DNA of 64,000 nt from Patescibacteria group bacterium. Lineage in GTDB: Bacteria; Patescibacteriota; Minisyncoccia; Phycocordibacterales; Phycocordibacteraceae. Below, piece after piece: positions 5,476-60,819 of this stretch. Location of the stretch: NCBI GenBank assembly GCA_004322365.1, contig SCTS01000006.1:4777-68776 (forward strand). Reading direction: 5' to 3'. Both the position numbers and the translations under genes were made by a program. The stretch's first letter is position 1; each line of letters opens with the position of its first letter. Under the pieces are notes generated by a model. That model saw only the letters and a list, made by a program, of their open reading frames with translations. It was not told the DNA's origin and searched no databases.

Positions 5476-5697
5476 TTATACAATCTCTCCTTTTTTCTCA
5501 AGCGTCATGTGATGGAGCGTCGCAAGTTGAAGCCAAATGGCAATCAATATTCTAATACCAGCATCAATAAAAAGATGGTTCTGATTCAAACCAAAGACCG
5601 TTCCGCTTGGACCGGCAATATACGCCCCGACAAGCGCTACAATTCCCGCTACGCCTACAATGACGCTCACCACATGCAATATTTTTGATATCTTCAT
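5476..5697 (-). CDS. small 2-TM membrane protein with conserved HHM motif
   Basis: 73 aa. Clear paralog of the ORF at 60601-60819; both end in ..LIAIWL..T.HHM.LEK.GEI. Both are adjacent to metal-transport genes. Confidence 0.5.
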   Translation of the reverse strand: MKISKILHVVSVIVGVAGIVALVGAYIAGPSGTVFGLNQNHLFIDAGIRILIAIWLQLATLHHMTLEKKGEIV

Positions 5698-5729
5698 ATA
5701 TTTTTACTTTTAATTAATTTTTAATAAGA

Positions 5730-6350
5730 TTATTTGTACCAACTTTCATACCAGCCCTGCATTTGCTGAATCTCTTTGGCTTGAGAGTCAATAATATTTC
5801 TTGCGAGCTGTTGCATTTCTGGCTGTGCAGTTCCAGATTCAAGCATGCGAGCCATCATGATTGCCATTTGATGATGCGGAATCATAGCCTCGATAAATGC
5901 CTTGTCGAAATCAGGTGCATTTTTTAAAGCTTCAATATCCTGTGCACCTCCCATGTGCATGCCGCCCTGTGACATCATTCCGCCAATCATGGCACTGCCT
6001 TTTGATACTTCTTTTCCAAACCAATCTTTGTACCAGCTTTTCATCTGCTGATTTTCAGATTCTTGTGCGCTTACGATGGCTTGGGCAAGCGTCTTTATTT
6101 CAGGTCTTTTTGCTTTCTCGAGCGCAAGATTTGCCATAGCAATTGCTCCATCATGATGAGATATCATCTGTTCGATGAAGTGTTTATCAATCGAACTCAC
6201 ATTTGCTGACTGAGGGGTTTGATTTTGGTTGTTTCCCCATGACATCATTCCACCATATCTCATCATGGGAAAGAATATTGCCGCAAAAATGAGACCGATA
6301 ACAATTCCGCTTACTCCGTACATGACGCTATTATTTTGATTGTTGTTCAT
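5730..6350 (-). CDS. DUF305 family protein (copper-resistance-associated, Met/His-rich)
   Basis: Duplicated HH-containing helices (ISHHDGAIAMA.., IPHHQMAIMMA..) after an N-terminal TM segment. Hallmark of DUF305. Confidence 0.7.
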   Translation of the reverse strand: MNNNQNNSVMYGVSGIVIGLIFAAIFFPMMRYGGMMSWGNNQNQTPQSANVSSIDKHFIEQMISHHDGAIAMANLALEKAKRPEIKTLAQAIVSAQESENQQMKSWYKDWFGKEVSKGSAMIGGMMSQGGMHMGGAQDIEALKNAPDFDKAFIEAMIPHHQMAIMMARMLESGTAQPEMQQLARNIIDSQAKEIQQMQGWYESWYK

Positions 6351-6393
6351 AGTTTTGTAGTTACTGTAATAATGACCTTTCTAATAGAAATAG

Positions 6394-7524
6394 TTATGGG
6401 GTGCCACCCATATCCTTATTCCACATACTAATACCATTTGGCATTTCACCAATTTTTATTCGAGCAACTTCTTTGTTTGATAGCGCGTCTATTACAGACA
6501 TATCCTTACTCAACAGGTTTGTTACATACACGAACCGTCCAGCTTTATCTACTACGATGCCGTGCGGTCCGTCCCCTGCAGGTATGACCTGATCAACTTT
6601 TTTTTGGCCAATATCAATTCGATACACTGTATTCCCGATAGGCTGATCAAAGTAGTACCCCTGGTTTACAACATAGAGATATTTTGAATCAGGAGTTGCG
6701 TACAATTGGACTGATCCTTTAGCGTCCTCTGGGAGGTCAATGTATCCTTGTTCTTCTGTCTGCGTCTTAATCCATGCTACTTTTTTTGTGTTGTAAACGG
6801 AACCGAAGACATAGTTTCCATCGGAGGTTACCGCCGTCTGAATTACCGCGCCCGACAGTGGATATTCTAGTACTGAGTAATTTTTAAGGCTGACTTCAGC
6901 AATTGCCTTTCCGCCAATCAATGCAACATATAGTTTTGAATTATCAGGTGAGAGGCGCAGACCGTGAGGTTCACTTTTTTCACCAATAGAAATTGATTTT
7001 TCTATTTTTTTGTTGGTTAAGTCAATGCTATATAAAATCCCTTTCTCTTGCGACATAACATAGGCGCGGGTGCCCGCATCATTGATGACAACGTGCGCAA
7101 GATGCGAGTCTATTTCAATCGGTAATGATCCCGTCACAGTGTCAGTCTTCGGATCAATGAAGAATACTTTGTCGTAGAGGTCGTCCGAGACATCTTCATT
7201 ATTTGATTCACTCTCTCCCATGACACCTCGCTTCACATTAGCGGTGACAAGAACAATTTTTCCATTCGGAGCCACTTGCACATTGTGAGTGGTGTACCCC
7301 ACAAACTTGCCATTCTGGACTTCGGAGAGGTCAATTGATTTAATAACCTTACGCGAAGCGGTATCAACGACGCCCACTCTTCCCTCCTCTTCTATCGCGA
7401 CATACACTTTCTCAGTGTAGTTTTGAGCACCACCAATGTTGCTTTGAGACGAGAAAAGAAATGCTGCGATGAAAAAGGGTGACAATGCAAGAGCTATGGC
7501 TGCTATGAGTGATATTTTTTTCAT
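6394..7524 (-). CDS. secreted YVTN-type beta-propeller repeat protein
   Basis: Signal peptide then repeated about 40-aa units (..YVALIGG.., ..FVYVTNLLSKDMSVID..) typical of YVTN propellers. Confidence 0.55.
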   Translation of the reverse strand: MKKISLIAAIALALSPFFIAAFLFSSQSNIGGAQNYTEKVYVAIEEEGRVGVVDTASRKVIKSIDLSEVQNGKFVGYTTHNVQVAPNGKIVLVTANVKRGVMGESESNNEDVSDDLYDKVFFIDPKTDTVTGSLPIEIDSHLAHVVINDAGTRAYVMSQEKGILYSIDLTNKKIEKSISIGEKSEPHGLRLSPDNSKLYVALIGGKAIAEVSLKNYSVLEYPLSGAVIQTAVTSDGNYVFGSVYNTKKVAWIKTQTEEQGYIDLPEDAKGSVQLYATPDSKYLYVVNQGYYFDQPIGNTVYRIDIGQKKVDQVIPAGDGPHGIVVDKAGRFVYVTNLLSKDMSVIDALSNKEVARIKIGEMPNGISMWNKDMGGTP

Positions 7525-7528
7525 ACCG

Positions 7529-9823
7529 TTATAGTTTCTTTACTTTTAGACGGAGTGAGTTCGTGACCACCGAAACACTCGACATAGCCATCGCAAATCC
7601 CGCAAAGACAGGCGACAACAACCAACCAAAGAACGGAAAGAATATTCCGCTCGCCAGTGGTATGCCAACGATGTTGTATATAAATGCCCAGAACAAATTT
7701 TGTTTGATTCCGCGCATTGTTAACTTTGAGAGGCGAATCGCTTTCACTATTTTAGAAACATCTCCATGAAGAAGCGTAATCCCCGCGCTTTCAATGGCCA
7801 CGTCTGTTCCTGTCGCCATTGCAATACCAACGTCAGCTTGCGCGAGCGCTGGCGCGTCATTCACCCCGTCCCCTGCCATTGCGACGACATACCCCTTGCT
7901 TTGTAACTCCTTAATTTTTGCCAGCTTATCAGCAGGCATGACCTCTGCCACAACCTCATCAATACCAACTTGATCGGCAATATAGCGTGCGGTGTTTTTG
8001 TTATCACCGGTAAGCATTACCACCTTAATCCCAAGCTTGTGCAGATTCTTTACCGCCTCAATGGCTTCCGGCTTTATCGCATCCGCAACCATAAACACCC
8101 CGAGCAACTTTTCTTTTGTTGCAAGCAAGACGGGTGTTTTACCTTCAGTGGTTTCTTTTGTTATTGACTCCGTGTCGAAACTGAGCCCTAGGTCTTGTAT
8201 TAATTTTGTATTACCTGCGAAGTATTCAACACCATCAATTAACCCCTTCACTCCTTTGCCTTTGATCGCTTCAAAACCAGTAACAGTAGGAATATCTATT
8301 TTTCTTTCTTTGGCGGAGGAAGCAATGGCGTGGGCGATTGGATGTTCAGATTTATTTTCAAGTCCTGCCAATACCGAAATAATGTTACTCTCCGATTTCT
8401 CTGAAAGATTTTTAATGGATACTAACTCAGGCTTCCCTCGAGTGAGGGTACCTGTCTTGTCGACCACGACAGTAGTCACCTTGTGAAGTTTTTCCAAAGT
8501 AGCAGCATCTTTCACTAAAATTCCTTCACGAGCGCCTTTGCCTACTCCCACAATAATCGCAGTGGGCGTAGCGAGCCCCAATGCACATGGACATGCAATT
8601 ACCAGAATTCCTACGAAAGAAACAAGTCCGTACGAAAGTGCTTGAGAGAACCCTAGGTACGGTGTACCTATCAAGAGCCATAGGTCGAGAGCAATGACTG
8701 CCAATACCAAAACTACTGGGACAAAAACAGACGAAATTTTGTCAGCCAACGCTTGAATGGGCGCCTTACTTCCTTGAGCGTCTTCAACCATTCTAATAAT
8801 CTGAGACAGGAAAGTCTGTGACCCAATTTTTGTTGCTCTAAACGTAAATACGCCTGAGGTGTTAATAGTTCCGGCCACTATCGAATCACCAAATTCTTTC
8901 TTCACTGGCATTGGCTCACCAGTAACCATAGATTCATCAACAAAAGACTCCCCTTCAGTTATTTCGCCATCAACTGGAATCTTTGCGCCAGGCTTTACGA
9001 TGATAAACTCGCCTACTTTCACTTGGTCTATGGGTATTTCTATCTCCTTTCCATCCCGTATGACGAGCGCGGTCTTTGCCTGAAGATTCAATAGCTTTTC
9101 AATCGCGTCACCTGTTTTAATCTTCGATTTTGCTTCCAGATATTTACCAAGCGTAATGAATGCAATCACCACGATAGTCACGTCGTAATAACTTTGATCA
9201 ACATTCAAATATGGGCGGAGCGATGTCTCGAGAGCCGCTATCATTAAGCTGTATGTGTACGCGGCAAGTGTTCCAATCCCTATAAGGGTGTCCATATTTG
9301 CTTTGCCATAGCGAATGAAGCGATACACACCAAGAAGATACGGTTTACCGACTACAAAAAGCACATACGTTGCAAATGCCGGTAATAGGTGATGAAAAAA
9401 TTCAGACCAAACATAGGGCATCGCCGAAATGATTTTAAATTGGGCGAGAATGTCCCACCCCATGATGAAAGCGGCAAAAATGGCAATGGGAATTGCTGAG
9501 AGTACCTTTATACGCATATCTGCAACCTCCGCTAACTTTTCCTTCTTTGTTTGATTGAGCCCGAGGTGTGCGGCATGATCTTCCGGAGACATACCCATTT
9601 CTAGAGCCGTAGCAGGGATATCTAGAGAATATCCGAGAGGCTCAATATGTTTTGATAGTTCGTGTGCGTTCGTTTTAGCGGGGTCAAAAGAGACCTTCGC
9701 TTTTTCAGTCCCATAGTTTACTTCTGCAGAATGCACGCCTTCAACTTTCTTAAATGTCTTCTCGATAGTCGAGGAGCACGAAGCACAGTGCATTCCTTTA
9801 ATGTTATACGTTTGTGTTTGCAT
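7529..9823 (-). CDS. copA: copper-translocating P1B-type ATPase
   Basis: N-terminal HMA (GMHCASC), CPC motif ([11 protein letters not shown]), DKTGT phosphorylation site, GDGVNDAP hinge. 764 aa. Confidence 0.9.
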
Positions 9824-9847
9824 ATTACTTGTAGTGAGTCTGTCGAA

Positions 9848-10123
9848 CTATTTCCTCTTTAATTTATACACCTTGAGAATTTCTTCTTTTGCCTTGTCTA
9901 TTTTGCCTGACTTCACTTGATTTAAGATGCAGCCACCAAGATGATTCTCGAGGAGAAGATCTTCAACATTCGAAAGCCCCTGTTTTACTGCAGATGTCTG
10001 GGTAATTACATCAATGCAATAGATATCACTCTCAACCATCTTTTGAAGCCCTCGAACTTGACCTTCTAAAAGTTTGAGTCGGCGAATGACTTTCGCTTTA
10101 CTAGTATCATCCATGTATTTCAT
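9848..10123 (-). CDS. csoR: CsoR/RcnR family metal-sensing repressor
   Basis: About 90 aa after trimming to the internal Met (the ORF-track start is GTG at 10165). RRLKLLEGQVRGLQKMVE..YC..H..C is the CsoR signature. Confidence 0.8.
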   Translation of the reverse strand: MKYMDDTSKAKVIRRLKLLEGQVRGLQKMVESDIYCIDVITQTSAVKQGLSNVEDLLLENHLGGCILNQVKSGKIDKAKEEILKVYKLKRK

Positions 10124-10128
10124 ACAAA

Positions 10129-10156
10129 CAAGTATACCCCCTAGGGGGTATACTTG
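10129..10156. promoter_or_regulatory. perfect 28-bp palindrome CAAGTATACCCCCTAGGGGGTATACTTG; CsoR-type operator
   Basis: Read directly from sequence. GC-tract pseudo-palindrome of the ATACCC..GGGTAT type, 5 bp upstream of the csoR start codon. Confidence 0.7.
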
Positions 10157-10163
10157 CAAGTCC

Positions 10164-10191
10164 ACATACCCACATTTGAGTGTGGGTATGT
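10164..10191. promoter_or_regulatory. second palindrome ACATACCCACA-TTTGAG-TGTGGGTATGT between the cusA stop and csoR
   Basis: 11-bp arms with ends related to the CsoR box (TACCC..GGGTA). Could be a second operator or a T-run-less terminator of cusBA. Confidence 0.45.
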
Positions 10192-13100
10192 TACTGATCT
10201 GCCACTTTCTGAAATTTCTTCAGAATATTCTCAAGCTTCGGCATATCGTGATGCCTGAAGTGATAGAACACTGATGGTGTGAAGATGAGTGACACTATCG
10301 TTGAGCTGATAAGTCCTCCAAAAATCACAACCGCGAGTGGGTGTAGAAGCTCTTTGCCTGGCTCTTCTGCTCCGATAAGAAGTGGTACAAGCGCGAGCGC
10401 GGTGACAAGTGAGGTCATAAGAACGGGAACGACACGGTCAAGTGTTGCCTTAAGAACTATCTCCTTCGTTACTCCGTCTCTACTCTCTTTACCTACTAAG
10501 TTGAGCGTGTGACTAATAAGGATGATTCCGTTTCTCGATACGATACCCGCGAGCGATATGAATCCAACGAGGTGTGCGAGATTTATTTCGCCTCCAGTAA
10601 CCCACACTGCAACCATGCCGCCGAATATGGCTGACGGAATATTGAGCATTATCTGGAGCGCAATTGGAATTGACTTGAAGGTCTGATACAGAACCCAAAG
10701 AATAAGCAGAAGTCCTACCGCAAAGAGAATACCGAGTCGCTGGCTGTTTTCTTTCTGACTCTTATAAGTACCTTCATACGAGATGGACTGTCCCTGTGGT
10801 AGTTTTTCTTTGTCCATTGTTTGCTTAACCACCTCAACAGCACCAACAATATTTCCACCTTCATAGTTAGCGCTCACCACAAGAACGCGTTTCCCGCCTT
10901 CATGACTAAATTTATTTCGCCCAGCATCAAGGCGGAGTTCCGCTACATTGCCGAGAGACTCTACTCCATCAAAAGGAAGCGAGAGATCTCGTATGCCGTC
11001 ACTGTTGCCACGCCATGAAGGGTCATACCGAAGAACGACATCAGTACGAGCGGCACCTTCTTGAATCTGACCAATTTTGACTCCAAGAAGACCTTCTTCA
11101 AGTTCTTCTGCAACTTCGCCACTCGATACGCCGTAGTCTGCTAGCCGATTGCGGTCTGGGTAAATACGAAGTTCCGGAAGAAGCACTTCTTTTTGTACTT
11201 GTGGATTTTTTACCCCTTCTTGTTTTGCGAGCTCTGCACGAATCATATCTCCTGTCTGCTTAAGCTCGGATAGATTGTCTCCATACACTTTAACCACTAT
11301 AGGAGCACGAACTCCGGATAGTAGTTCTTCAACACGGTGAGTTATTGGCTGACCTATCGAGAAGTCTGCACCAGGGAATCTATCGACTACTTTCTGTATT
11401 TCGGCGAATAGTTTTTCGCGTTCACCTTCAAGGCCTTGCTCGAAGGTTACCTGGATCTCGCTCGTGTTTGCTCCACTGTCGTGAGGATCTGCACCCGCAC
11501 GACCAGTAATGTGTCCTGCGCGTGCGACACCATCTATTTTTCCTATCTCTTTTTCGACACGAGATGCAAAAGCATTTGACGTTCCAAGATCTGTCCCGAC
11601 AGGCATAACCACAGAGATAGTTGCGGAACCTTCATTGAACGGTGGTATGCCTTCCTTACCTGCAAGCATATACATACCAACAGTGATGAGTATTCCAACG
11701 CCTGTGGCCATCATAAGTGGGCGCACATGATCAATGCCCCACATAATGACAGGGGTCATTTTTGTTTTTATGAAGCGCACGAATTTCGTATCACCTTCAT
11801 GTCCTGTTAGATGTTTTGGTGTGAGCAATAATGCGCACAGCGCGGGGGTTATGGTCACTGACACCACGAGTGACGCGAGCAGTGCAATTAGGTATGCACT
11901 TCCAAGAGACGCCAAAAGACGACCTTCAACTCCCGGAATAAAGAATACGGGCAAGAACACTATCACCACGAGAACAGTCGCAACGACAATCGAACTCAGA
12001 ACTTCGCGAGTGCCCTCATACACAACAGACTGTATTGACTCTGTTGATCCTGATGCTTTCCATTCTCTAAGTCTTCTGAAAACATTCTCAACGCCCACGA
12101 TGGCATTGTCGACCAACTCACCGACTGCAACCGCAATGCCACCTAAAGTCATCACGTTCACAGAGAATCCCAGCAACTTGAAGACAATCAAGGTGACGAG
12201 AATGCTGAATGGAATAGATACAAGAGTGATGAAAGTCACCCTTCGATGCATCAAAAACAGCGCGAGAATAATAGCGACCACAACAACACCTTCGAGGAGC
12301 GCTTTGTAGACGTTATTAAGCCCCGCATCAATAAACCATTCTTGACGAAACAAGTCGTTCTGTAAGGTCACTCCTTCAGGAAGGGATTGCTTGATACCGT
12401 TTAATGCATCATCGACGGAAGCCGTTACCGCGAGTGTCTCCGCTTCCGGCTGTTTTGCAATACGAAGAATGACTCCGGGCTTGCCATCTATAGTTGCACT
12501 GCCACGCACTGGACTCACACCAGAAACTACTGTTCCGATGTCTGCGAGACGTACACCACGGCCATTCCATGTCGTAATGCCAATTTCTTCGATTTCGGCC
12601 ATGTCTTGGGGAGAAACAAGAATGCGAAGTGGGTATTCCTTACCACCCTGCACCAAAAGTCCGCCACTCTTGTTCGTGATTGCAGAGCCAAGCTTCTCTT
12701 CAACATCAGAGATTTTGAGACCGTAGCGTCGCATCGCCTCGGGATTAAGATTGACCTGCCACTCCTTCACATCACCGCCAAGTACGATAATATCGCTCAC
12801 ACCTGGGACGCGCAGAAGCGCTGGTCGCACTGTCCAATCGGCAAGTGTGCGCAACTCTTTACTGTCGGATGTTTCGTCACTCGAGGTAAGTCCAACCCAC
12901 ATAATCTCGCCCATGATGGAGCTCACTGGGCCGAGTACGGGGCGAACATTTGGCGGAAGATCAAGACGTGAAATCCGCTCTTGAATGATTTGTCGATTAC
13001 GATATATATCTGACCCCCAATCAAACTCCGCTTGCACAATGGCGAGTCCAAACGATGCGGTTCCGCGCACGCGTGTGACACCTGGTGCGCCAGCAACCGC

Positions 13101-13343
13101 ATTTTCAACTTGAGAGAGAATTAAACGCTCAACCTCTTCAGGCGCAAACCCCTCAGCTTCGGTAAATACCGCGACCGTTGGTTTGTTAATGTCTGGAAGC
13201 ACGTCGACTTTCATAGTCACGAAGCTCCACGTTCCAAGTAGAATGAGCGCGACAAATACTGCCACAGTCCGCCACTGATGTTTGAGAGAAAGTGAAATAA
13301 TACGATTCAACATACTATTCGTCGTGAGCATGGCCATGCCCAT
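10191..13343 (-). CDS. cusA: heavy-metal-efflux RND permease (CusA/CzcA family)
   Basis: 1050 aa, 12-TM RND architecture with two large periplasmic loops; sequence style of HME-RND. Confidence 0.85.
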   Translation of the reverse strand: MGMAMLTTNSMLNRIISLSLKHQWRTVAVFVALILLGTWSFVTMKVDVLPDINKPTVAVFTEAEGFAPEEVERLILSQVENAVAGAPGVTRVRGTASFGLAIVQAEFDWGSDIYRNRQIIQERISRLDLPPNVRPVLGPVSSIMGEIMWVGLTSSDETSDSKELRTLADWTVRPALLRVPGVSDIIVLGGDVKEWQVNLNPEAMRRYGLKISDVEEKLGSAITNKSGGLLVQGGKEYPLRILVSPQDMAEIEEIGITTWNGRGVRLADIGTVVSGVSPVRGSATIDGKPGVILRIAKQPEAETLAVTASVDDALNGIKQSLPEGVTLQNDLFRQEWFIDAGLNNVYKALLEGVVVVAIILALFLMHRRVTFITLVSIPFSILVTLIVFKLLGFSVNVMTLGGIAVAVGELVDNAIVGVENVFRRLREWKASGSTESIQSVVYEGTREVLSSIVVATVLVVIVFLPVFFIPGVEGRLLASLGSAYLIALLASLVVSVTITPALCALLLTPKHLTGHEGDTKFVRFIKTKMTPVIMWGIDHVRPLMMATGVGILITVGMYMLAGKEGIPPFNEGSATISVVMPVGTDLGTSNAFASRVEKEIGKIDGVARAGHITGRAGADPHDSGANTSEIQVTFEQGLEGEREKLFAEIQKVVDRFPGADFSIGQPITHRVEELLSGVRAPIVVKVYGDNLSELKQTGDMIRAELAKQEGVKNPQVQKEVLLPELRIYPDRNRLADYGVSSGEVAEELEEGLLGVKIGQIQEGAARTDVVLRYDPSWRGNSDGIRDLSLPFDGVESLGNVAELRLDAGRNKFSHEGGKRVLVVSANYEGGNIVGAVEVVKQTMDKEKLPQGQSISYEGTYKSQKENSQRLGILFAVGLLLILWVLYQTFKSIPIALQIMLNIPSAIFGGMVAVWVTGGEINLAHLVGFISLAGIVSRNGIILISHTLNLVGKESRDGVTKEIVLKATLDRVVPVLMTSLVTALALVPLLIGAEEPGKELLHPLAVVIFGGLISSTIVSLIFTPSVFYHFRHHDMPKLENILKKFQKVADQ

Positions 13344-51782: not shown

Positions 51783-51833
51783 CTTGCCAAGCAAGAAGAC
51801 GGAGCACACTGCATTTCTGCAGTGTGGGAGAGG

Positions 51834-51875: not shown

Positions 51876-52000
51876 AGTGTTTTTTGCAACAAAAAACCGT
51901 GAGGCGGCGATTAGAAAATCGTGCCGAGAGGCTCTGCGACTTAAGGTGAACATGGGTGAACCTTAAAGTTCTAGGTGTGTTCCCCTTCCTTCTGGCACAC

Positions 52001-52450: not shown

Positions 52451-52458
52451 CGATCCAA

Positions 52459-52495
52459 AAGCTGAAAGCTGTAACCTGACACCTGAAAGCTGGTC
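52459..52495. repeat. heptamer array GCTGAAA GCTGTAA CCTGACA CCTGAAA GCTGG between prx and 5-FCL
   Basis: Read from sequence. Confidence 0.6.
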
Positions 52496-53138: not shown

Positions 53139-53140
53139 TG

Positions 53141-53166
53141 CAGTTCTAATGAAGCTAGTTCTAACG
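53141..53166. repeat. short heptamer-family element (AGTTCTA ATGAAGC TAGTTCTA) abutting the prx start codon
   Basis: Similar to the reverse complement of the dus leader array. Confidence 0.45.
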
Positions 53167-53192
53167 ATTATTATGATAGCATACCAGCCACA

Positions 53193-54119
53193 ATGAAAGA
53201 GAAAGTACTAGTCGTCCTTGGACCCACTGCAGTGGGTAAAACAAGCATTTCTATTGAAATCACTAAAGCACTCGGTGGTGAGGTTGTGTCTGCGGACTCA
53301 CGGCAAGTCTATAGAGGACTTGATATTGGGAGTGGCAAAGTTACATCATCTGAGATGAATGGAGTTCCCCATCATCTCATTGATATCGCAAACCCGGAGG
53401 AGATATTTTCTGTGTCTGATTATCTACACCTAGGAAGACAAGCATTGAGCGACATACTCACTCGCAAAAAAGTTCCTGTCGTCGTCGGAGGCACAGGATT
53501 CTATATTGATGCGCTCTTGGGAAATATTTCACTTCCTAATGTACCGGCAGACCCAAGCTTAAGGTTTCAGCTGTCAGGTTTCAGCTTGGAGGAACTGAAT
53601 GAAGAGTTGGAAAAACTGGATCCTGAGAGAATTAAAACTATAGATACAAAAAATCCAGTGCGCTTAATACGAGCCATAGAAATAGCACGGGCACTTGGTG
53701 CAACCCCTCAATCCGCACCAGAGGCACCCTACAATGTTTTATATATTGGACTCACTTTGCCACTCACTCAATTGCAGGAAAAAATACGCACTCGTCTTCT
53801 CGCTCGTCTAGAGTTAGGAATGCTTGATGAAGCAATTCGACTCCACGCACACGGACTCTCATGGGAGAGGATGGAAAGCTTGGGACTTGAGTATCGGTAT
53901 ATGGCACGACACCTTCAGGGACATATTTCGTATGAAGAAATGGTAGCCCAATTGGAACTAGAAATTCGACACTATGCAAAGCGCCAAATGACGTGGTTTA
54001 AGCGAAACAAAGATATTCAGTGGTTTACCCCGAACGCAGTTGATGGGTTTAATCCAGAACAGAAAAAAGAAATCCTCGCACTAACAAAAAACTTTATGTC
54101 TCCCAACTACTCCAATTAA
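53193..54119 (+). CDS. miaA: tRNA dimethylallyltransferase
   Basis: P-loop GPTAVGKTS, SADSRQVYRGLDIGSGK. Start trimmed to MKEKVLVV. Confidence 0.85.
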   Translation: MKEKVLVVLGPTAVGKTSISIEITKALGGEVVSADSRQVYRGLDIGSGKVTSSEMNGVPHHLIDIANPEEIFSVSDYLHLGRQALSDILTRKKVPVVVGGTGFYIDALLGNISLPNVPADPSLRFQLSGFSLEELNEELEKLDPERIKTIDTKNPVRLIRAIEIARALGATPQSAPEAPYNVLYIGLTLPLTQLQEKIRTRLLARLELGMLDEAIRLHAHGLSWERMESLGLEYRYMARHLQGHISYEEMVAQLELEIRHYAKRQMTWFKRNKDIQWFTPNAVDGFNPEQKKEILALTKNFMSPNYSN

Positions 54120-54145
54120 TCGGAGTAGTTGTTCCAAATATGAAG

Positions 54146-54745
54146 CTAGTCACCTTGAAATTTCACTGAACCAGGACAACCCGGTAAGCCAAGGTTCTTA
54201 TCGGCGTAATATTCATTTACCCAACGAGGCGTTTGAACTGTAGCAACAATTGAGCATAATTCTTTTGGAGATAGACCGGTTCTCTTAGCTAAATCATCAG
54301 CTGCTTTTCTTCTTACCTCAGCAAGGGGCTCTCCTGCTAAGACCAAGGAGAAAGAACGATCTGAGGGAAAGTAGTTAATCTCATAATCAAATTCGGATGG
54401 ATTGGTGCTTGTAACACTGGAATACAAAACATAAAAAACTCGATTGTCTGGTTCGGCAATAATATCAGGGCCTTTAGTAAAATCTTCTACGAACAAAATG
54501 TCTCCAGTAACTGTACGCACCTCTAAGGTGTTTGAACTCTGCACCGGCACCCCCTGTGAAGTAGCAGAAACAGGCCTTCGATCATCTTTCGTTCCAAAAA
54601 ATGGCAATGTGGCTGAGAAAGGATCTTCATTAACAATAGTTGTCTTAGTGGCGTTTGACCCGAAAGAAAAGAAATACAATATGCCCAATCCGAGAATGAG
54701 CAATAAGGCCCCGAAGGCAACTATGAGAGTTGGAGATAATTTCAT
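54146..54745 (-). CDS. hypothetical membrane-anchored protein
   Basis: Single N-terminal TM (internal start MKLSPTLIVAF..); extracellular domain of unknown function. Confidence 0.35.
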   Translation of the reverse strand: MKLSPTLIVAFGALLLILGLGILYFFSFGSNATKTTIVNEDPFSATLPFFGTKDDRRPVSATSQGVPVQSSNTLEVRTVTGDILFVEDFTKGPDIIAEPDNRVFYVLYSSVTSTNPSEFDYEINYFPSDRSFSLVLAGEPLAEVRRKAADDLAKRTGLSPKELCSIVATVQTPRWVNEYYADKNLGLPGCPGSVKFQGD

Positions 54746-54761
54746 ACGGAATAGGTATTCA

Positions 54762-55640
54762 TTAACCATTAGGATAGACCGCGCGGGGTAACTGAAAATG
54801 CATCGCATCGTAACACCTGTTTTGCATGAAGGTTGGACTACTACCCCCCCACTGATAAGGAATACCGGTCTGCCGACTGCCACAAGCAAATGCGTCATTT
54901 ATTGCTCGATAATTTGCATTGGGGACTGCACATGAACCTCCTGTATAGCTCACTATACTTCTAATGATAGGGTGCGCGTCTACAGCCATACCCTGGATAT
55001 GCCGTGAATCTGTAGCGGTGCTAGACCTCTGACGAAAACCACTCGTCACCTGAAATTGAATAGGAGAACAGGCATGAGCCGCATTGACGAGTCGGACAAG
55101 GTCAGGGTGAACTCCCGCAAGATTATCATTACGATTTGTTGGAGCAACGGGAGTTCCAGTACCGGTCACTCGAGGACGAGGGGTAGGTGCACCTGGTGCA
55201 TCAGGAAATGCGGCACTAGTTGGATTTCCCACACATGAAATGTCTGTCCATATAGCAAGACCTCTTCCGGTAAGCACCGAAAAAGTAACATTCACCAAAA
55301 GCCATGCAGTGAGGACGATACATAAGCCAACGAATACATTAATGAACACCCCGTGTGCTTTCTTTACTTGGTCTGGTTTGCTGGCTGCGGTTACATACAG
55401 GATGCCTGCATAAGCAAACATGAGTGTGGCAATAATTACTGAAAATGCAATAGCAAAGTTGATAACATTGCTCGAAAGCTCAATAAGATCGCACGCTCTG
55501 CAGAGTGCTCCCTCACACTGAGGAACTAATCCCCCACCACTCCCACTTAAGAGTGCTGAAGGGTCTTGTTGAACTGCAGCAAATGCCACGAGTGGCATGA
55601 AGAACAGTATCGGAAGGAGAAGTATCAGTATCTTTCTCAT
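54762..55640 (-). CDS. pilin-like (TrbC/VirB2-type two-helix) N-terminal domain fused to M15-family zinc peptidase (VanY/DD-carboxypeptidase-like)
   Basis: Signal peptide then two hydrophobic helices. C-terminal S-x-H-x2-G-x-A-x-D-x-H (DSRHIQGMAVDAH) zinc motif of peptidase M15. Confidence 0.5.
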   Translation of the reverse strand: MRKILILLLPILFFMPLVAFAAVQQDPSALLSGSGGGLVPQCEGALCRACDLIELSSNVINFAIAFSVIIATLMFAYAGILYVTAASKPDQVKKAHGVFINVFVGLCIVLTAWLLVNVTFSVLTGRGLAIWTDISCVGNPTSAAFPDAPGAPTPRPRVTGTGTPVAPTNRNDNLAGVHPDLVRLVNAAHACSPIQFQVTSGFRQRSSTATDSRHIQGMAVDAHPIIRSIVSYTGGSCAVPNANYRAINDAFACGSRQTGIPYQWGGSSPTFMQNRCYDAMHFQLPRAVYPNG

Positions 55641-55794
55641 CACACAATGAGTATACCCTTGAAAAGCGGCTTTCGGCCTGTATATGAGACCTTTCCACAC
55701 CTCGAAGAACCACATATTGACTTTCCTCATAGGAAGCACATGATTTAGAGAGATAGCGCATGATTATTGGTTTTCTAAACAGAAACTGAAACAT

Positions 55795-56217
55795 ATGGGA
55801 TCGCAATACGAAGGCCGACATCGTACTCAAAAGAAACCTTGGGGTGCAGCGCTACTCGCAGCCGTCACTCTTGGCTTTGCTGGTGATGCGGGAGCGCAGA
55901 GTCAACCTGACCGAAGCTTCTACTTTAATCGTGACCCTGAGCTTCCCCTAGCGGAAAACATTAGGAGATTTAATCTAATGCAAGCAAGACGGAGGAGTGG
56001 AGAGATATCAGATGACTGCATGGAAATTATAGCTATTACAGAAAGACAGCTACGAGCAGGTCAATATCCAGAATACTTAGAAGAAGATGTCTCATCCTGC
56101 AGTGATAACGAATATAATAGATTATCAGCTCTCGACAGAGCAAACGCTAGGCGTAGAGGCTTAGCAGGGATGGCAGATTTGCCAGCAGATCGTCGAGGTA
56201 GCGGAGGAAATCCTTAA
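55795..56217 (+). CDS. hypothetical secreted protein
   Basis: Signal peptide (AALLAAVTLGFAGDAGAQS); Arg-rich; no family. Confidence 0.35.
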   Translation: MGSQYEGRHRTQKKPWGAALLAAVTLGFAGDAGAQSQPDRSFYFNRDPELPLAENIRRFNLMQARRRSGEISDDCMEIIAITERQLRAGQYPEYLEEDVSSCSDNEYNRLSALDRANARRRGLAGMADLPADRRGSGGNP

Positions 56218-56240
56218 TTACCCATGCTATGAAGTGATAA

Positions 56241-56272
56241 AAACCCGCCCACATTTAACTGGCGGGTTTTTA
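56241..56272. terminator. bidirectional rho-independent terminator
   Basis: AAAA-CCCGCC-cacatttaact-GGCGGG-TTTTT between convergent genes. Confidence 0.65.
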
Positions 56273-56566
56273 TTTATGATTCTGAATCCACCACTTTTTT
56301 ACTAGCGGAAGTGATTGCGTAGAGAGGAGGTATCCAACAGCTGGTACTAATGCGTTGAATATGAAATTACTGATGCCTAAGATCGCAAGAATAAAACACG
56401 CGACAACATAGGTGATGATAGTAATAGTGAGGATGCGAAACCAGCTTACTTCCCAAGCTTTTTCGGCTTCTACCTTCAGGTTTCGTTCCCGAATAAGCTG
56501 TACTTCCCTTTCCAATTTTTGTATACGATCTTCTGTCATAGAATCAGTGTAACTCACCCATTTCAA
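56270..56566 (-). CDS. small coiled-coil plus 2-TM membrane protein
   Basis: 98 aa; N-terminal charged helix then two TM helices. Confidence 0.4.
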   Translation of the reverse strand: MKWVSYTDSMTEDRIQKLEREVQLIRERNLKVEAEKAWEVSWFRILTITIITYVVACFILAILGISNFIFNALVPAVGYLLSTQSLPLVKKWWIQNHK

Positions 56567-56609
56567 AAAATACTACCAAACCTTTTTCCATCTTTCAGAT
56601 TTAAAATCA

Positions 56610-56651
56610 CAATATAGTATAATCTAACGGTCGTTAAATTATACTATATTG
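56610..56651. promoter_or_regulatory. second copy of the 44-bp TATAAT-containing palindrome (one arm mismatch)
   Basis: CAATATAGTATAATCTAACG-GT-CGTTAAATTATACTATATTG. Confidence 0.6.
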
Positions 56652-56764
56652 TGCATTGAGGCTCGGAAGTTAGTTCTAATGTTGATTTGAACTGTGACCT
56701 CGCTTTTCTAATGCGCTACAGAGCAAAAACCAATCAGTGTATGGAAATGTTAGGATTGTAATCG

Positions 56765-57850
56765 ATGCCTATAGATATTCTCAACCCAGTTTCTTCAACA
56801 TACATCTTCGCAGTACTGCTGTTCGTGGGGCTGTTGTTTTCGTTGAAGAAAAAAGAAAGTACGGAACTCCTCCCCCCAACCCTTTCACAAGAACTTAAGG
56901 GGTTTGCGATGCTTGCGATTATTTTGGCGCACATTGGATATTTTTTAGTAAACGACCATCGGTTTCTTTTTCCTTTATCAATTTTCGCAGGTGTGGGGGT
57001 AGACCTCTTTCTTTTTCTCTCTGGTTTCGGACTTGCACTGTCTGCTCTCAGAAAGAAGCTTTCGCCAAGAGATTTTTATCGACGACACCTTCCTAAGCTG
57101 TATATCCCTTTTTGGATAGTACTTACAGTGCTTTTCGTTGCTGACTTTCTGTTACTCAACACCACCCGCTCTTGGAGCTACATAGTGCAATCGTTTTTCG
57201 GCTTCTTTCCTCATGCGAATCTCTTTACTGATATCAACTCACCTCTTTGGTATTTCACCTTCATACTTTTTTTCTATCTTATATTTCCTATTCTGTTCTT
57301 CAAACAAAGACCACTACTTTCAGCAGTTCTGATGTATGTCGGGGTGCAAAGTGTCATGTTTTTACACCTACCTATTCTAAAAAACGTTGAACATCTCTAC
57401 CTACTCCATACCGTTGCGTTTCCATTAGGTGTAGCTGTTGCGGGGCTCTATCAGAGATATTCAAAAAACCGTGAGTACATAGAGAGTCAAATTAAAAAAG
57501 TGAGTATGTGGATCCTGGTTCCAAGCATGTTGTGCATTACAGGAATCTTTTCTTATTTTGCGTATTTCTCTGGCGTCGGTACACCATCACAGCAATATAT
57601 AAGCCTCTTGGTGACACTCTTACTTCTTATTCTTTTCATTCTCAAACCTTTTCGTATCAGCTTTTTCTATCTTTTGGGAATATACTCCTACGAGCTCTAC
57701 CTCATACACTGGCCTCTTATGTCACGGTACGACATTCTCTATTCACACCTCCCTGCATGGCTAGCCACTACGCTGTATATCCCTCTGCTTTTGGGATTAG
57801 CTTGGTTGTTGCACAAAGCGGTTGAAGTTATGTTGAAAAAGAAAAATTAG
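56765..57850 (+). CDS. acyltransferase family 3 (OafA-like) membrane protein
   Basis: About 10 TM helices; conserved His-containing N-terminal helix (ILAHIGYF); 361 aa. Confidence 0.7.
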   Translation: MPIDILNPVSSTYIFAVLLFVGLLFSLKKKESTELLPPTLSQELKGFAMLAIILAHIGYFLVNDHRFLFPLSIFAGVGVDLFLFLSGFGLALSALRKKLSPRDFYRRHLPKLYIPFWIVLTVLFVADFLLLNTTRSWSYIVQSFFGFFPHANLFTDINSPLWYFTFILFFYLIFPILFFKQRPLLSAVLMYVGVQSVMFLHLPILKNVEHLYLLHTVAFPLGVAVAGLYQRYSKNREYIESQIKKVSMWILVPSMLCITGIFSYFAYFSGVGTPSQQYISLLVTLLLLILFILKPFRISFFYLLGIYSYELYLIHWPLMSRYDILYSHLPAWLATTLYIPLLLGLAWLLHKAVEVMLKKKN

Positions 57851-57884
57851 TTAGGTGTTGTGCAAAAATAGCTAAGATTGACTC

Positions 57885-58382
57885 TTACATTTTTCCTTTA
57901 CCGAACGCATTCCAAGGAAGCTTGATATTTGATTCTGGAAAACTGCTCAACACCCACTGCACGTAGGTATTGCTGTTAGGACCTAAAAGCGAGTAATAAT
58001 CTCGATGTGGATACGAGGTAATGGAATTTTCAATGTAGGTGGCCATACGCTCAGCAACCGAACCCGCACCGCCTTCTACTACACCTACAATTACCCCTTT
58101 CCAATGCGTGTGATGTATAGAGGGAAATATTTCTAAGCCTTCGAAAGGAGGTTTTGCATTTTTATGTAGACGACCAGAACACTCCTCGCACGAGTGTGTT
58201 CCAAAAAATCTTCTACTTTCTTCGGTATTGTAACGGCCGATTCCAAATCGTGACACTATTCCCCTTTGATTTATGACAAGCCACGGGTGTACAGCGAACG
58301 AAAATGGCATCGTTGCTGGGCACACCATGACAAAGACTTGATAGATATCTTTTCGTACCAAAGAGACTAGAGGTTCGTGCAT
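57885..58382 (-). CDS. hypothetical protein
   Basis: 165 aa; no recognisable motifs beyond a CEEC pair. Confidence 0.3.
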   Translation of the reverse strand: MHEPLVSLVRKDIYQVFVMVCPATMPFSFAVHPWLVINQRGIVSRFGIGRYNTEESRRFFGTHSCEECSGRLHKNAKPPFEGLEIFPSIHHTHWKGVIVGVVEGGAGSVAERMATYIENSITSYPHRDYYSLLGPNSNTYVQWVLSSFPESNIKLPWNAFGKGKM

Positions 58383-58486
58383 AAAAAATTAGTTGCGAAA
58401 GGGAAATTTATTTTAGCAAAGTTACCTGAGTATATGAAGATACGTGGATATAGAACACAGACAAAATATTAGATAATTGCATGCAA

Positions 58487-59074
58487 TTAAAGAATCTTCT
58501 CTCGAAAAAGAATTAACTCACTAGACTCAGGTATTGCTTCATCGCCAGTCAGTCGGAACCCAAACTCTTCGTACATGTCTTGCGCAACGACCTCTTCAGG
58601 TGCAGTAGTTGTCCATAGTCGTAATTTCTCAAAACCAATTAAGCGAGCCTTGGAAATAGTTTTTTTAAGCAATGACCGCCCATACCCCTTCCCGCGATAC
58701 TGAGGAGTAACCCCAAACCACCCAAGCCATGCTACATCATTCGTATCCTCCATTTTTGTTTCAAGACCAGTGATTCCTGCCACATCGTGTGACTTTTTTG
58801 ATTTCGTGGCAACCCAATACTTCTGGGTTTTTATACCATTCGCGAGCATCTCCTCATTAAATCTTTCAGGTTCCAAACTCATTCGATAATCCCGTTCAAC
58901 TGCGATTTGATCTTTTGGATTACCAAATATTTCAAAAGCAGAACCGAGGGCGCGTGAAAATATTGAAGGGGAAATCCCATGCAACTTTATACGCGCACTT
59001 TTATGGTGATGTTCTTGGATCCTTTCATCACCATAGGAAACATAGGAAACACCTTGAGGAGACTCAAAACTCAT
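58487..59074 (-). CDS. GNAT family N-acetyltransferase
   Basis: Motif A region VAWLGWFGVTPQYRGKGYGRSLL (Q/RxxGxG/A). Confidence 0.75.
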   Translation of the reverse strand: MSFESPQGVSYVSYGDERIQEHHHKSARIKLHGISPSIFSRALGSAFEIFGNPKDQIAVERDYRMSLEPERFNEEMLANGIKTQKYWVATKSKKSHDVAGITGLETKMEDTNDVAWLGWFGVTPQYRGKGYGRSLLKKTISKARLIGFEKLRLWTTTAPEEVVAQDMYEEFGFRLTGDEAIPESSELILFREKIL

Positions 59075-59162
59075 ACCTTATAAAATATACTCTTCTGTTC
59101 GAAGTAAGTAAAAAAGTATCTTTTGTATACAAGCAACTATAGTCGCTTCGCTCGTTATTTTT

Positions 59163-59220
59163 GCGGGGCCACAAGGATTCGCCTCTCGTCGCTGCTGCAA
59201 CTCGAAACCTACGGCCGCTC
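59163..59220. repeat. repeat C: tRNA-Trp 3'-end-like fragment (GGCCACAAGGATTCG) joined to the conserved repeat body (CTCTCG..CTCGAAACCTACGGCCGCTC)
   Basis: 16/17 match to 59546-59562 of tRNA-Trp. Body shared with repeat A. Confidence 0.55.
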
Positions 59221-59223
59221 AAA

Positions 59224-59457
59224 TCAAGATAGATGCCTTTTTATGAAAGCTCTTCCGGAACCTGATTTGAGATATTTTTCAAACTCAAATGCTTTGTATT
59301 TATCTGCGATAGCAACATAGAATTCCAAAGCTACAGGTAGACGCTCTCTCGTGGCAAGAACTTGACCTTTCATATGCCTACTCATTCTATCTTTCAAATC
59401 AGTAGTACATCCAATATAGAATCCGTCTTTGCACTTTAAGCTATATACATACCACAT
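59224..59457 (-). CDS. GIY-YIG nuclease family protein (small)
   Basis: YVYSLKCKDGFYIGCTTDLKDRMSRH carries the GIY..YIG and catalytic Arg motifs. 77 aa. Confidence 0.7.
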   Translation of the reverse strand: MWYVYSLKCKDGFYIGCTTDLKDRMSRHMKGQVLATRERLPVALEFYVAIADKYKAFEFEKYLKSGSGRAFIKRHLS

Positions 59458-59543
59458 AAAATTTCACTTCAGCGGGTTTCACCACGCCGAAGCCATGACG
59501 AATCCCACCTTCGTCTCGAGACGGGACTTCGGCGTGGCAAAGG

Positions 59544-59614
59544 CGGGCCCACAAGGATTCGAACCTTGATCGACGGTTTTGGAGACCGTAATTCTACCAT
59601 TGAACTATAGGCCC
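59544..59614 (-). tRNA. tRNA-Trp (anticodon CCA)
   Basis: Manual fold: acceptor GGGCCTA/TGGGCCC, anticodon stem ACGGT/ACCGT with loop CTCCAAA, T-arm CAAGG-TTCGAAT-CCTTG. Confidence 0.8.
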
Positions 59615-59685
59615 TATTGAGTCACCAGTATAAATGAAAAAAGGGAAAAAGTATTTCCCTTTCAAACATCAAAAATAAGCAATGC

Positions 59686-59844
59686 TTACTTTTTAGCTTC
59701 TTTGAAGGTCACGCGCTTCCTGACCACTGGGTCGTACTTTTTGAGCGCCATTTTTGTATTCGCAAGCTTCTTTTTGTTTTTGGTAGTCCAAATAACATGG
59801 CCAGAAGCCGAGGATTTCATCTTGATGAGGTTATCTTGTGACAT
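59686..59844 (-). CDS. rpmG: 50S ribosomal protein L33
   Basis: 52-aa ORF, below the 60-aa threshold of the ORF track: [52 protein letters not shown]. Matches L33 (..[28 protein letters not shown]). Confidence 0.8.
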
Positions 59845-59895
59845 GCCGTGTACTATACCTCAGGTTCTACTATGGGTCAAAATCCGAGAATCTCC

Positions 59896-60417
59896 TTATA
59901 CTCCCTGCCCCAAAGACCCACTTGCTCGCTTAACAAGCTCATCTCTCAAAACCTCTGCATCTGCTTTTGATACTCCAGGTAATCTTCCTTCTGCGCTGAT
60001 ACCTGCCATCCCATATCGGCTTATCGAAGCACTCGCCCCTGCCGTTTGAATATGCAAATCTGAAAGACCTAGTAAGCGCGCCAGAATGCCACGATTAATA
60101 TCAACATTTTGGATTCGTGCATAAGGTATGGTGACGTATTTTTTCCAAATTACTCCAGATTCCTTACGAAACCCTAAATCGGTTAACTCGTAGCGATAGT
60201 AGTGATATGAGAGCTTTGCCCAAATAAATGATAATGCTATCAAAACGAGGAATATCAGCACGAGCCATGTTACGAGGGTAATAATCCAATTTCCATCGAA
60301 GATCCCTTCAATCGCAATCAACACTACCCATCCGGTAAACATCATACTGAGTACGAATGACCCGAATACGGAGCTAAGAAAAAATAACCACACTGCTTTT
60401 TTGTCTAGTTGTTTCAT
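59896..60417 (-). CDS. bacterial PH-domain (bPH_2/YdbS-like) membrane protein
   Basis: Two N-terminal TM helices then PH-like domain (YRYELTDLGFRKESGVIWKKYVTIPYARIQNVDI..). Confidence 0.6.
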   Translation of the reverse strand: MKQLDKKAVWLFFLSSVFGSFVLSMMFTGWVVLIAIEGIFDGNWIITLVTWLVLIFLVLIALSFIWAKLSYHYYRYELTDLGFRKESGVIWKKYVTIPYARIQNVDINRGILARLLGLSDLHIQTAGASASISRYGMAGISAEGRLPGVSKADAEVLRDELVKRASGSLGQGV

Positions 60418-60465
60418 AGAAAATATATAAATAAGTGAACTCCTTTCAGTATATAACAAATCTCG

Positions 60466-60550
60466 GGTTGGATTCGCTTCTCGCGTTTGACCCTCAAAGG
60501 GAGACGAGGCGTCTTGAGCTCGAAACCTACGGTCGCTGTGCGGACAACAG
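60466..60550. repeat. repeat A: tRNA-Tyr T-arm-like fragment (GGGTTGGATTCG) joined to repeat body with GGAGACGAGGCGTCTTG hairpin and CTCGAAACCTACGGTCGCTGTGCGGACAAC
   Basis: 12/12 identity to 63354-63365 of tRNA-Tyr. Same orientation as repeat B on the other side of the copper cassette. Confidence 0.6.
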
Positions 60551-60600
60551 TTCCAACTGCAACTATTCAGAATAGATGAAGAAACTTGTTGTTCATATGA

Positions 60601-60819
60601 TTAGATAATTTCCCCTGTCTTCTCAAGCATCATGTGATGGATGGTGCTGATGGCAAGCCAGATTGCAATAAGCATGAGGACAGCTGAGCACATGAGTGCA
60701 TCCATTTTCGTGATTCCGAACACGTCCTCAGAATTACCGAAAACACTAATCAAGAAAGATACAACTCCAATAAATCCGGCAACTACACTGCCTACATGTA
60801 TTGCTTTTGATAGTTTCAT
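60601..60819 (-). CDS. small 2-TM HHM-motif membrane protein (paralog of 5476-5697)
   Basis: 72 aa; about 45% identical to the locus-1 paralog; 24 bp downstream of the copB-type ATPase. Confidence 0.5.
   Translation of the reverse strand: MKLSKAIHVGSVVAGFIGVVSFLISVFGNSEDVFGITKMDALMCSAVLMLIAIWLAISTIHHMMLEKTGEII

Follow-up and report, generated by a model that had tools for sequence, protein, structure and literature searches.

Two hairpin genes in copper-transport operons

A 64,000-nucleotide stretch of the genome of a Patescibacteria group bacterium (GenBank assembly GCA_004322365.1, contig SCTS01000006.1, positions 4,777 to 68,776), here called the window, carries two copper-transport loci on its minus strand, and in each of them is a small gene for a membrane protein with a His-His-Met motif. 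At locus A this gene, small A, lies between one for a DUF305 protein and one for a membrane protein with HMA and DsbD_2 domains, in a tightly packed and probably co-transcribed set that is headed by a CsoR-family repressor gene and includes a CopA-type ATPase gene. At locus B its paralog, small B, follows genes for a CsoR-family repressor and a CopB-type ATPase (Table 1). The two products belong to a hitherto undescribed family of inner-membrane proteins, each a helical hairpin of ~73 residues. The small gene is almost always found in a copper operon, whereas the pumps can do without a copy of it in their vicinity.

A first-pass annotation, made from the letters alone, had proposed that the two open reading frames (ORFs) are paralogs about 45% identical, each with two transmembrane (TM) helices and with a shared C-terminal ..LIAIWL..T.HHM.LEK.GEI motif, and on each count closer inspection agrees. 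BLASTP aligns the proteins end to end with 32/73 identities (44%, E 1e-19), and the motif is present in both. A hidden Markov model (HMM) of the family, built from 36 members, matches small A (1e-37) and small B (1e-34) and no other among all window ORFs of at least 30 amino acids. With the family alignment, AlphaFold 2 predicts a helical hairpin, H3-28 and H39-68 joined by a short beta-turn loop, with a mean pLDDT of 95. At 100% identity small A matches a database entry, 'hypothetical protein EPO14_01920', from a 280-kb contig of a Patescibacteria group bacterium.

That the family had not been described, as also proposed, is borne out by searches from several directions. Neither small A nor small B has a Pfam match at E≤10, and Pfam, NCBIfam and PDB sequence searches with the single sequences and with all 36 aligned members gave nothing significant; sub-threshold matches to ZYG-11_interact, holin, Sdh_cyt and similar families (E≥0.006) were rejected as noise from TM composition. 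Foldseek comparison of the model with the PDB reached a best E of 1.2 and returned only generic helical hairpins, such as those of chemoreceptors and ATP-synthase c subunits. In 5.8 billion proteins, 177 relatives of small A were found; the 120 of them that were listed are 67-78 residues long, any name that a source gives them is of the 'hypothetical' or 'uncharacterized membrane protein' kind, and relatives with a named organism come from Patescibacteria lineages. Of 1.84 billion cluster representatives searched exhaustively with the HMM, no more than 79 matched, all of 38-97 residues, which marks the family as a small one whose members are never joined to a further domain. One genome per species (185,579 GTDB representatives) was scanned with the seed pattern [AGS]T[IM]HH[MI][MKT]LE, and tblastn confirmed at least 176 relatives. 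The wider family occurs in genomes of the Patescibacteria, or candidate phyla radiation (CPR), except for one distant relative on a contig with archaeal-type genes. Nothing specific on this family or on CPR copper operons was found in the literature, a search that left most subscription journals uncovered.

Ten residues are invariant in an alignment of 36 diverse members, namely H8, G15, G18, G36, A53, W55, H62, H63, L66 and E67, and so the His-His pair seen in the window keeps its conservation in a broad alignment. Of 113 unique sequences, 105 have HHM and seven HHI, position 64 being Met or Ile, and H8 is kept in 109 of 112. There is no conserved Cys. On average Lys plus Arg number 1.9 in the N-terminal tail, 0.9 in the loop and 1.9 in the C-terminal tail, and Asp plus Glu 0, 1.8 and 2.0, a strong bias from which the positive-inside rule would place both termini in the cytoplasm. 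H8, at the start of the first helix, and H62-H63-M64, at the end of the second, would therefore lie at the same cytoplasmic membrane boundary, and in hairpin register we infer that they are no more than about one helical turn apart. Both window proteins have all the features by which the HHM clade is defined here: ~72-73 residues, a 2-TM hairpin, H8 and ..LIAIWL..T.HH[MI].LE..GE...

Table 1. Coordinates of features in the window and, by locus label, in other contigs
Locus	Feature	Position	Strand	Basis and remarks
A	AcrB-family resistance-nodulation-division (RND) transporter, 1050 aa	10191-13343	-	PF00873, 1e-228
A	CsoR-family repressor, heads locus A	9848-10165	-	PF02583, 1e-22; YCIDV...NHLGGC, C-H-C
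A	CopA-type P1B-1 ATPase	7529-9823	-	Pfam HMA (N-terminal), E1-E2_ATPase and Hydrolase; CPC motif
A	YncE-like beta-propeller protein	6394-7524	-	PF21783
A	DUF305 protein	5730-6350	-	PF03713, 2.7e-43; 32 nt upstream of small A
A	small A	5476-5697	-	73 aa, 2-TM hairpin, HHM clade; H8, H62, H63, M64
A	HMA and DsbD_2 membrane protein	4446-5453	-	Pfam; start revised to ATG 5453 (MKTITLHVSG...)
A	Membrane-anchored cupredoxin-like protein, 132 aa	4031-4429	-	PF13473 (Cupredoxin_1); N-terminal TM helix
B	tRNA-Tyr	63347-63430
B	Direct repeat, copy 2	63141-63188	+	Immediately upstream (gene orientation) of locus-B csoR
B	CsoR-family repressor, heads locus B	62796-63074	-	PF02583, 7e-21; YCIEI...NHLSTH, C-H-H
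B	CopB-type P1B-3 ATPase	60843-62762	-	Pfam; His-rich N-terminus, CPH motif
B	small B	60601-60819	-	72 aa, paralog of small A, same H8/HHM motif
B	Direct repeat, copy 1	60468-60515	+	Immediately downstream (gene orientation) of small B
B	bPH_2 membrane protein	59896-60459	-	Adjoins small B
B	tRNA-Trp	59542-59614
B	Partial copy of the tRNA-Trp end, 19 nt	59163-59181
L081	Sister-clade small gene	6001-6213
L083	Sister-clade small gene	6001-6204
L083	bPH_2 homolog	5459-5971
L084	bPH_2 homolog	1453-1965
L085	Sister-clade small gene	6001-6213
L087	Sister-clade small gene	2783-2986
L088	Distant family member	4940-5155
L014	Small His-rich membrane protein	3946-4239
L020	Small His-rich membrane protein	10228-10434
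L022	Small His-rich membrane protein	8606-8872
L172	Copper module beside integrase	1-628, 3567-9337

Copper linkage across genomes

For the gene context, 80 loci from 80 species-level genomes, with 85 small genes between them, were kept, and their ORFs were called and searched with the copper proteins of the window. Some copper gene lies within 5 kb of 84 of the 85, almost always on the same strand, and a P1B ATPase lies within 10 kb of 72 (71 within 5 kb); CsoR is near 65, HMA-DsbD_2 near 42, and DUF305 and the cupredoxin-like gene near 34 each. When only small genes with at least 5 kb on both sides are considered, an ATPase is present in 49/55 (89%) and some copper gene in 55/55. A CPR genome is of the order of 1 Mb with one to three P1B ATPases, so that a random 20-kb stretch would hold one in a few per cent of cases. 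The linkage to copper-transport genes that the first-pass annotation drew from two loci therefore extends well beyond the window, co-occurrence with P1B ATPases included, and two further members with Pfam-labelled gene calls agree, one in the order CsoR-small-...-ATPase-HMA-DUF4396-multicopper oxidase and the other in the order CsoR-HMBD-ATPase-small-...-DUF305-multicopper oxidase, beside a phage-type integrase. A CopZ-like HMA protein that stands alone is present in just ~7 of the 80 loci, and five loci (L001, L009, L016, L028 and L040) have two or three copies of the small gene.

Spacing is tight, with median gaps from the small gene to the adjacent gene of 13-31 nt. A P1B ATPase is within 150 nt on the same strand in 15 loci (median gap 23 nt), DUF305, the commonest upstream neighbour, is within 150 nt in 25 (median 31 nt), and HMA-DsbD_2 is adjacent in 23 (median 18 nt). 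In the window the CopB stop codon (60843-60845) and the small B ATG (60819) are 23 nt apart, close to the 24 bp given at first. The overlap reported between small A and the start of the permease-like HMA gene, with the translational coupling it implied, does not survive. It requires a TTG start at 5501 and was rejected as an artefact of ORF extension: the HMA-DsbD_2 start in 23 homologous loci reads MKT[LY]TFHV.G.HC and lies 2-21 nt past the small-gene stop, and the true gap in the window is 22 nt, from the small A stop codon (5476-5478) to the ATG at 5453. Four apparent 26-nt overlaps among homologous loci arise from the same upstream extension (MRKKERLY...). Nor is the HMA-DsbD_2 protein established as the copper transporter it had been taken for.

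At least three layouts recur, the neighbours in them having been checked against Pfam (DUF302, YHS, ICMT, HXXEE, DUF2933 and DUF3105). The commonest, layout I, is CsoR-CopA(CPC)-DUF305-small-HMA_DsbD2-cupredoxin, to which locus A conforms; in layout II the order is CsoR-(SHOCT)-(DUF302)-small-(88-aa 2-TM protein)-DUF2933-ICMT-YHS-...-ATPase(CPD); and layout III, which includes locus B, is CsoR-CopB(CPH)-small or YHS-small-CopB. The gene adjacent to the small gene may therefore encode a CPC, CPH or CPD ATPase, DUF305, HMA-DsbD_2, DUF2933, YHS or CsoR. The cupredoxin-like gene is alongside HMA-DsbD_2 in 34 GTDB loci.

Layout-II operons hold further small His-rich membrane proteins beside the HHM gene, as in L022, L014 and L020 (Table 1). 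One family, of 88 residues with two TM helices, has ELHHT and WMHNSS motifs and a weak DUF5676 match below the Pfam cut-off; another, of ~97 residues, starts MHNHD, has an MMWMM helix and a C-terminal CCH, and matches nothing in Pfam. Both look likewise undescribed. The neighbouring 68-residue gene is a bona fide DUF2933 (7e-19). Homology of the HHM family to the DUF5676-like 2-TM family (PF18926) was considered and rejected (hhalign probability 0.4%).

The signature motifs of the ATPases near small genes are CPC in 46, CPD in 20 and CPH in seven. The 20 with CPD in place of CPC or CPH, out of 76 P1B ATPases near a small gene, are in L014, L016, L020, L024-L026, L030-L032, L037, L040, L041, L046, L048, L050, L061, L066, L068, L071 and L072, and most of them begin with a zinc-ribbon-like domain, YTCPMHPEV..PGxCPxCGM. 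A similar ATPase in L172, whose signature motif is outside the CPD count, is labelled HMBD (PF19335). CPD was called a 'novel' variant in three rhizobial ATPases (PMC5552934); it appears to be common in CPR.

When the question is put from the side of the pump the picture changes. Among the 80 closest relatives of the window CopB, on metagenome contigs and at 59-100% identity, only eight have a family gene within 7 kb, and relatives at 85-86% identity are without one nearby. A fixed subunit of the CopB-type (CPH) ATPase was therefore rejected, pump and small gene not being co-inherited, and the 'accessory subunit' of a given transporter that the first-pass annotation had suggested is weakened by this and by the variable neighbours. 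A gene that is in copper operons yet is rare near CopB has the pattern of optional chaperones like copZ rather than that of a core subunit; copZ itself is described as belonging to the copA operon 'often, but not always' (PMC7558416).

Distant relatives from the exhaustive search have TLIHQ, TLVHL, AIYHK or ALYRR in place of the HH doublet, and these sister clades are homologous to the HHM clade (hhalign probability 99.7%). Their one conserved His is the counterpart of H63, whereas H62 was added in the HHM clade alone. Four of six such relatives are between or beside split transketolase genes (rpiB-rpe-tktN-(bPH_2)-small-x-tktC), one is among VKOR and Ham1 genes and one is on the contig with archaeal-type genes; in the nine loci fetched for the six (77 kb) there is no P1B ATPase, CsoR, DUF305 or HMA-DsbD_2 gene. 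The first-pass annotation had named homologs just as common away from metal genes, or HHM residues that vary, as what would speak against it, and the outcome is divided: inside the HHM clade the residues are invariant and copper linkage is near-total, and outside it the doublet and the copper context vanish together. Such a joint loss would be as expected if the doublet adapts a generic hairpin to copper.

The transketolase-linked sister clade (…LIAIWLKLGAIYHK, without the HH doublet) is present in several distant CPR lineages (L081-L085 and L087), and it is puzzling that a membrane protein should be encoded within a set of pentose-phosphate genes, amid those for the split N- and C-terminal halves of transketolase. 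The member in L088 (…VAVIHIAKEDKEE) shares its contig with an Rpb7 SHS2 domain, ribosomal protein S24e, DUF357 and PIN_9, and the wider hairpin family may extend to DPANN-like archaea.

Possible roles of the hairpin

The reading that we favour, though tentatively and at rather less than an even chance, is that the hairpin acts as an optional, CsoR-controlled, membrane-embedded Cu(I)-binding helper of efflux by P1B ATPases. The small genes are probably co-transcribed in CsoR-headed copper-efflux operons, and the hairpin would bind Cu(I) at the cluster of H8, H62, H63 and M64 in the plane of the inner leaflet and then hand the ion over to the P1B ATPase of the locus, be it of the CPC, CPH or CPD type, at the entry site that lies level with the membrane, or concentrate it there, as an optional membrane-embedded counterpart of CopZ, CupA or PacL and not a fixed subunit. 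Copper binding, the ligand set, ATPase contact and the direction of transfer are all what we infer. Occurrence with all three ATPase subtypes fits a helper that acts at a feature common to all P1B pumps, and CopA has an entry platform at the cytoplasmic membrane surface to which CopZ can deliver Cu(I) directly (PMC7558416). The reading also draws on the conserved His, the charge bias, the predicted fold, the copper linkage, the joint loss of doublet and copper context in the sister clades and the scarcity of CopZ-like genes (~7 of 80 loci). The metallochaperone idea is plausible.

Small helpers of P1B ATPases have precedents, and the closest in concept is the DUF1490 family (PF07371) of Mycobacterium tuberculosis, PacL1, PacL2 and PacL3, which are small membrane proteins encoded with P1B ATPases, as the HHM proteins are (72/85 within 10 kb), with a cytoplasmic His-containing metal motif and with paralogs each beside a different pump. 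PacL1 is a metallochaperone and a scaffold for CtpC (PMC9374683). The PacL proteins, however, cross the membrane once, contain Glu/Ala repeats and a disordered stretch, end in a DLHDHDH motif and are confined to Actinobacteria (PMC9374683), whereas the HHM proteins, from CPR hosts, cross it twice, are free of repeats and have their His where the helices meet the membrane boundary. DUF1490 was not among the families matched by any of the 36 members at E≤1, and with a different architecture, taxon and sequence the HHM proteins are not members of it.

Closest in kind is DUF2933 (PF11666), membrane proteins of ~55-85 residues with conserved Cys/His motifs in copA-cupredoxin-DUF2933-ICMT operons (PMC8478169, where they are given no function). 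They differ in a CPLMH motif and a His-rich tail, the HHM family has no match to the DUF2933 profile, and homology between the two was rejected (hhalign probability 2%); in several loci a DUF2933 gene adjoins the HHM gene, which is co-occurrence and not replacement.

CopZ and other HMA chaperones are likewise of ~70 residues, are often but not always in copA operons with a copper sensor and deliver Cu(I) to the ATPase (PMC7558416). The HHM protein is instead an integral membrane helical hairpin with His and Met and no conserved Cys; HMA (PF00403) has no match in small A, small B or the 36 members, and the all-helical model has no MxCxxC ferredoxin-like fold. CupA of Streptococcus pneumoniae, encoded in a copper-efflux operon, is a membrane-anchored chaperone that captures copper at the cytoplasmic membrane for delivery to CopA (PMC7558416), but it has one TM anchor and a cupredoxin domain with Cys/Met sites. 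The 132-residue cupredoxin-like protein of locus A is more CupA-like than the small hairpin is, and with one Cys and a C-x-M-x-M pattern (YDCSAS ... VCGMGM) it has a set of presumed ligands much like that of CupA. The likeness of CopZ and CupA to the HHM protein is one of proposed role only. PacL and CupA are unrelated to the HHM family, but they show that P1B ATPases served by a small chaperone or scaffold in the membrane are not a new idea.

Other P-type ATPases have tiny membrane proteins, among them KdpF, sarcolipin/phospholamban, FXYD and MgtR, that bind to their TM domain with a stabilising or tuning effect; they differ in having a single TM helix and no metal ligands and are not homologous to the HHM family. 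We know of no KdpF-like small subunit established for P1B pumps, and the weak reverse co-occurrence (8/80 CopB relatives) argues against a fixed subunit of that type here. MerF and MerE (two TM helices) and MerT (three) are small metal-ligand membrane proteins of metal-resistance operons. They have Cys pairs and import Hg(II) for cytoplasmic reduction, whereas the HHM protein has no conserved Cys and its context is efflux.

Several points weigh against the helper reading. No member among the 79 representatives from 1.84 billion proteins is fused to an ATPase or other domain, P1B pumps work without a nearby copy of the gene, and in L006, L012, L021, L029 and L038 no ATPase is present in flanks of ~6-10 kb. 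The predicted cytoplasmic position of the termini derives from charge bias, and the metal specificity of the locus-B CsoR is less certain because its sequence reads C-H-H and not C-H-C. His-only ligands with one Met also differ from the Cys-rich ligands by which Cu(I) is classically bound at high affinity in the cytoplasm. Copper binding and ATPase contact are putative, and what may be claimed is a new family with a proposed role of an already-known kind.

A more ambitious version of the helper reading seems rather doubtful. The HHM proteins would form a new class of integral-membrane copper metallochaperone that replaces soluble CopZ in CPR, with Cu(I) held by three His and a Met in the plane of the inner leaflet and fed sideways into the TM entry site of any P1B ATPase, and the clade would have arisen from a generic CPR hairpin with an ancestral H8/H63 pair that acquired H62 and became part of mobile copper islands.

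Copper efflux by P1B ATPases is among the best-studied of metal systems, yet the route of Cu(I) to the membrane entry site is still debated, and the only helpers known to us are soluble CopZ, streptococcal CupA and actinobacterial PacL (zinc). If the helper reading is true, a third, unrelated and fully membrane-embedded helper, with His rather than Cys ligands, widens the picture, and a gene in at least 176 of 185,579 species-representative genomes has a function. The link of motif to context, HH in copper operons and absent outside, together with the shortness of the protein makes for a tractable test case. Should it instead be a passive passenger of copper islands, the gain is one of routine annotation, a new DUF-type family for Pfam/NCBIfam, keeping in mind that small DUF-type membrane proteins are common in metal islands and that the concept has precedents.

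Of the alternatives the one that survives best, though it is unlikely, is a scaffold or regulatory micro-subunit, where the hairpin packs on the P1B TM domain and stabilises, clusters or gates the pump in the manner of KdpF or sarcolipin/phospholamban, with the His at most a copper-dependent switch. The protein is small and membrane-integral, has a conserved face of small residues (S11, G15, G18 and A53) typical of tight helix packing and is encoded directly beside the ATPase in 15 loci (median gap 23 nt), and there is the precedent of PacL1, which needs its metal motif at high zinc only and its scaffold function always (PMC9374683). Yet 90% of the closest CopB relatives are without a nearby small gene, three ATPase subtypes are involved with the small gene often several genes from the pump, and a structural role leaves unexplained the three invariant His and their loss in the sister clades that are not copper-linked.

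It is quite unlikely that the hairpin is an autonomous copper buffer or membrane protectant, induced through CsoR and binding copper at the inner membrane surface, so that less of it is free or lipid-associated, with no transporter contact. Such a role accords with the lack of a fixed neighbour, with L038, L021 and L006, where the small gene directly follows CsoR and the available flanks have no ATPase, and with the multiple or tandem copies in the five loci named above, as expected of dosage-dependent binding. One site per 73-residue hairpin is a small capacity, however, an ATPase is within 5 kb for 89% of the small genes with full flanks, and the copper stores described from bacteria, Csp and metallothionein, are soluble proteins rich in Cys (PMC7558416).

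Improbable, too, is a partnership with the DUF305/HMA-DsbD_2/cupredoxin module, for instance in a thiol-reducing or copper-handling relay for extracytoplasmic cuproproteins. The commonest layout does place the small gene between DUF305 (25 loci) and HMA-DsbD_2 (23 loci), as at locus A, but locus B and many other loci are without DUF305, HMA-DsbD_2 or cupredoxin, and in L170 it is a CopA-HMA_DsbD_2-cupredoxin operon that lacks the small gene and the second CsoR operon next door that has it.

There is very little to recommend a small oligomeric metal channel or permease like 2-TM MerF/MerE or Ctr1, with the His/Met ring as its cytoplasmic mouth. A hairpin of two TM helices could suit it, given the conserved glycines and the metal ligands gathered at a single membrane boundary; mercury resistance operons do encode small uptake proteins, and the cytoplasmic tail of Ctr1 carries HCH. 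Passive cation entry, though, is counter-productive in a copper efflux operon without a cytoplasmic detoxifying enzyme, and besides the boundary residues the membrane span has no conserved polar or ligand residues. Least credible of all is a non-metal protein, whether generic hairpin or bis-His haem binder, that hitch-hikes on mobile copper islands, since even with the wider family found in non-metal contexts, with copper modules that look mobile (the integrase in L172 and the direct repeat around the window cassette) and with weak sub-threshold matches to cytochrome b-type families, it leaves unexplained the 84/85 linkage across at least three operon layouts and an HH doublet invariant exactly in the copper-linked clade, while the cytochrome matches (E 0.05-0.25) are not significant and CPR bacteria are generally without haem synthesis and respiratory chains.

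Neighbouring genes, repeats and mobility

Directly upstream of the locus-A csoR and in the same orientation is the gene for the RND transporter, an odd pump in a lineage usually regarded as without an outer membrane. The true start of this CsoR is probably an internal Met. The presumed ligand fingerprints of the two repressors differ, being C...H-x3-C (NHLGGC) at locus A and C...H-x3-H (NHLSTH) at locus B. Promoter and terminator scans at both loci gave nothing near the small genes that was better than in shuffled controls.

The csoR-copB-small B cassette, between tRNA-Tyr and tRNA-Trp genes, is exactly bracketed by a direct repeat, 83% identical over 48 nt and extendable to ~75 nt, whose core 20-mer occurs twice in the window against an expectation of 0.01. 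Rfam recognizes only the two tRNAs around locus B and does not match the repeat, and the repeat was not found in 89 fetched loci. The arrangement looks like the scar of an inserted mobile cassette. On the metagenome contig L172 the copper module adjoins genes for the phage-type integrase and for HTH_17, which supports horizontal movement of copper islands among CPR bacteria.

No bPH_2 gene was seen in the 80 GTDB copper loci, but clear homologs (162 bits) of the one that adjoins small B lie beside the sister-clade small gene in the transketolase operons of L083 and L084. Their position next to hairpin genes may be due to chance, or the hairpin family may have a second linked partner in bPH_2.

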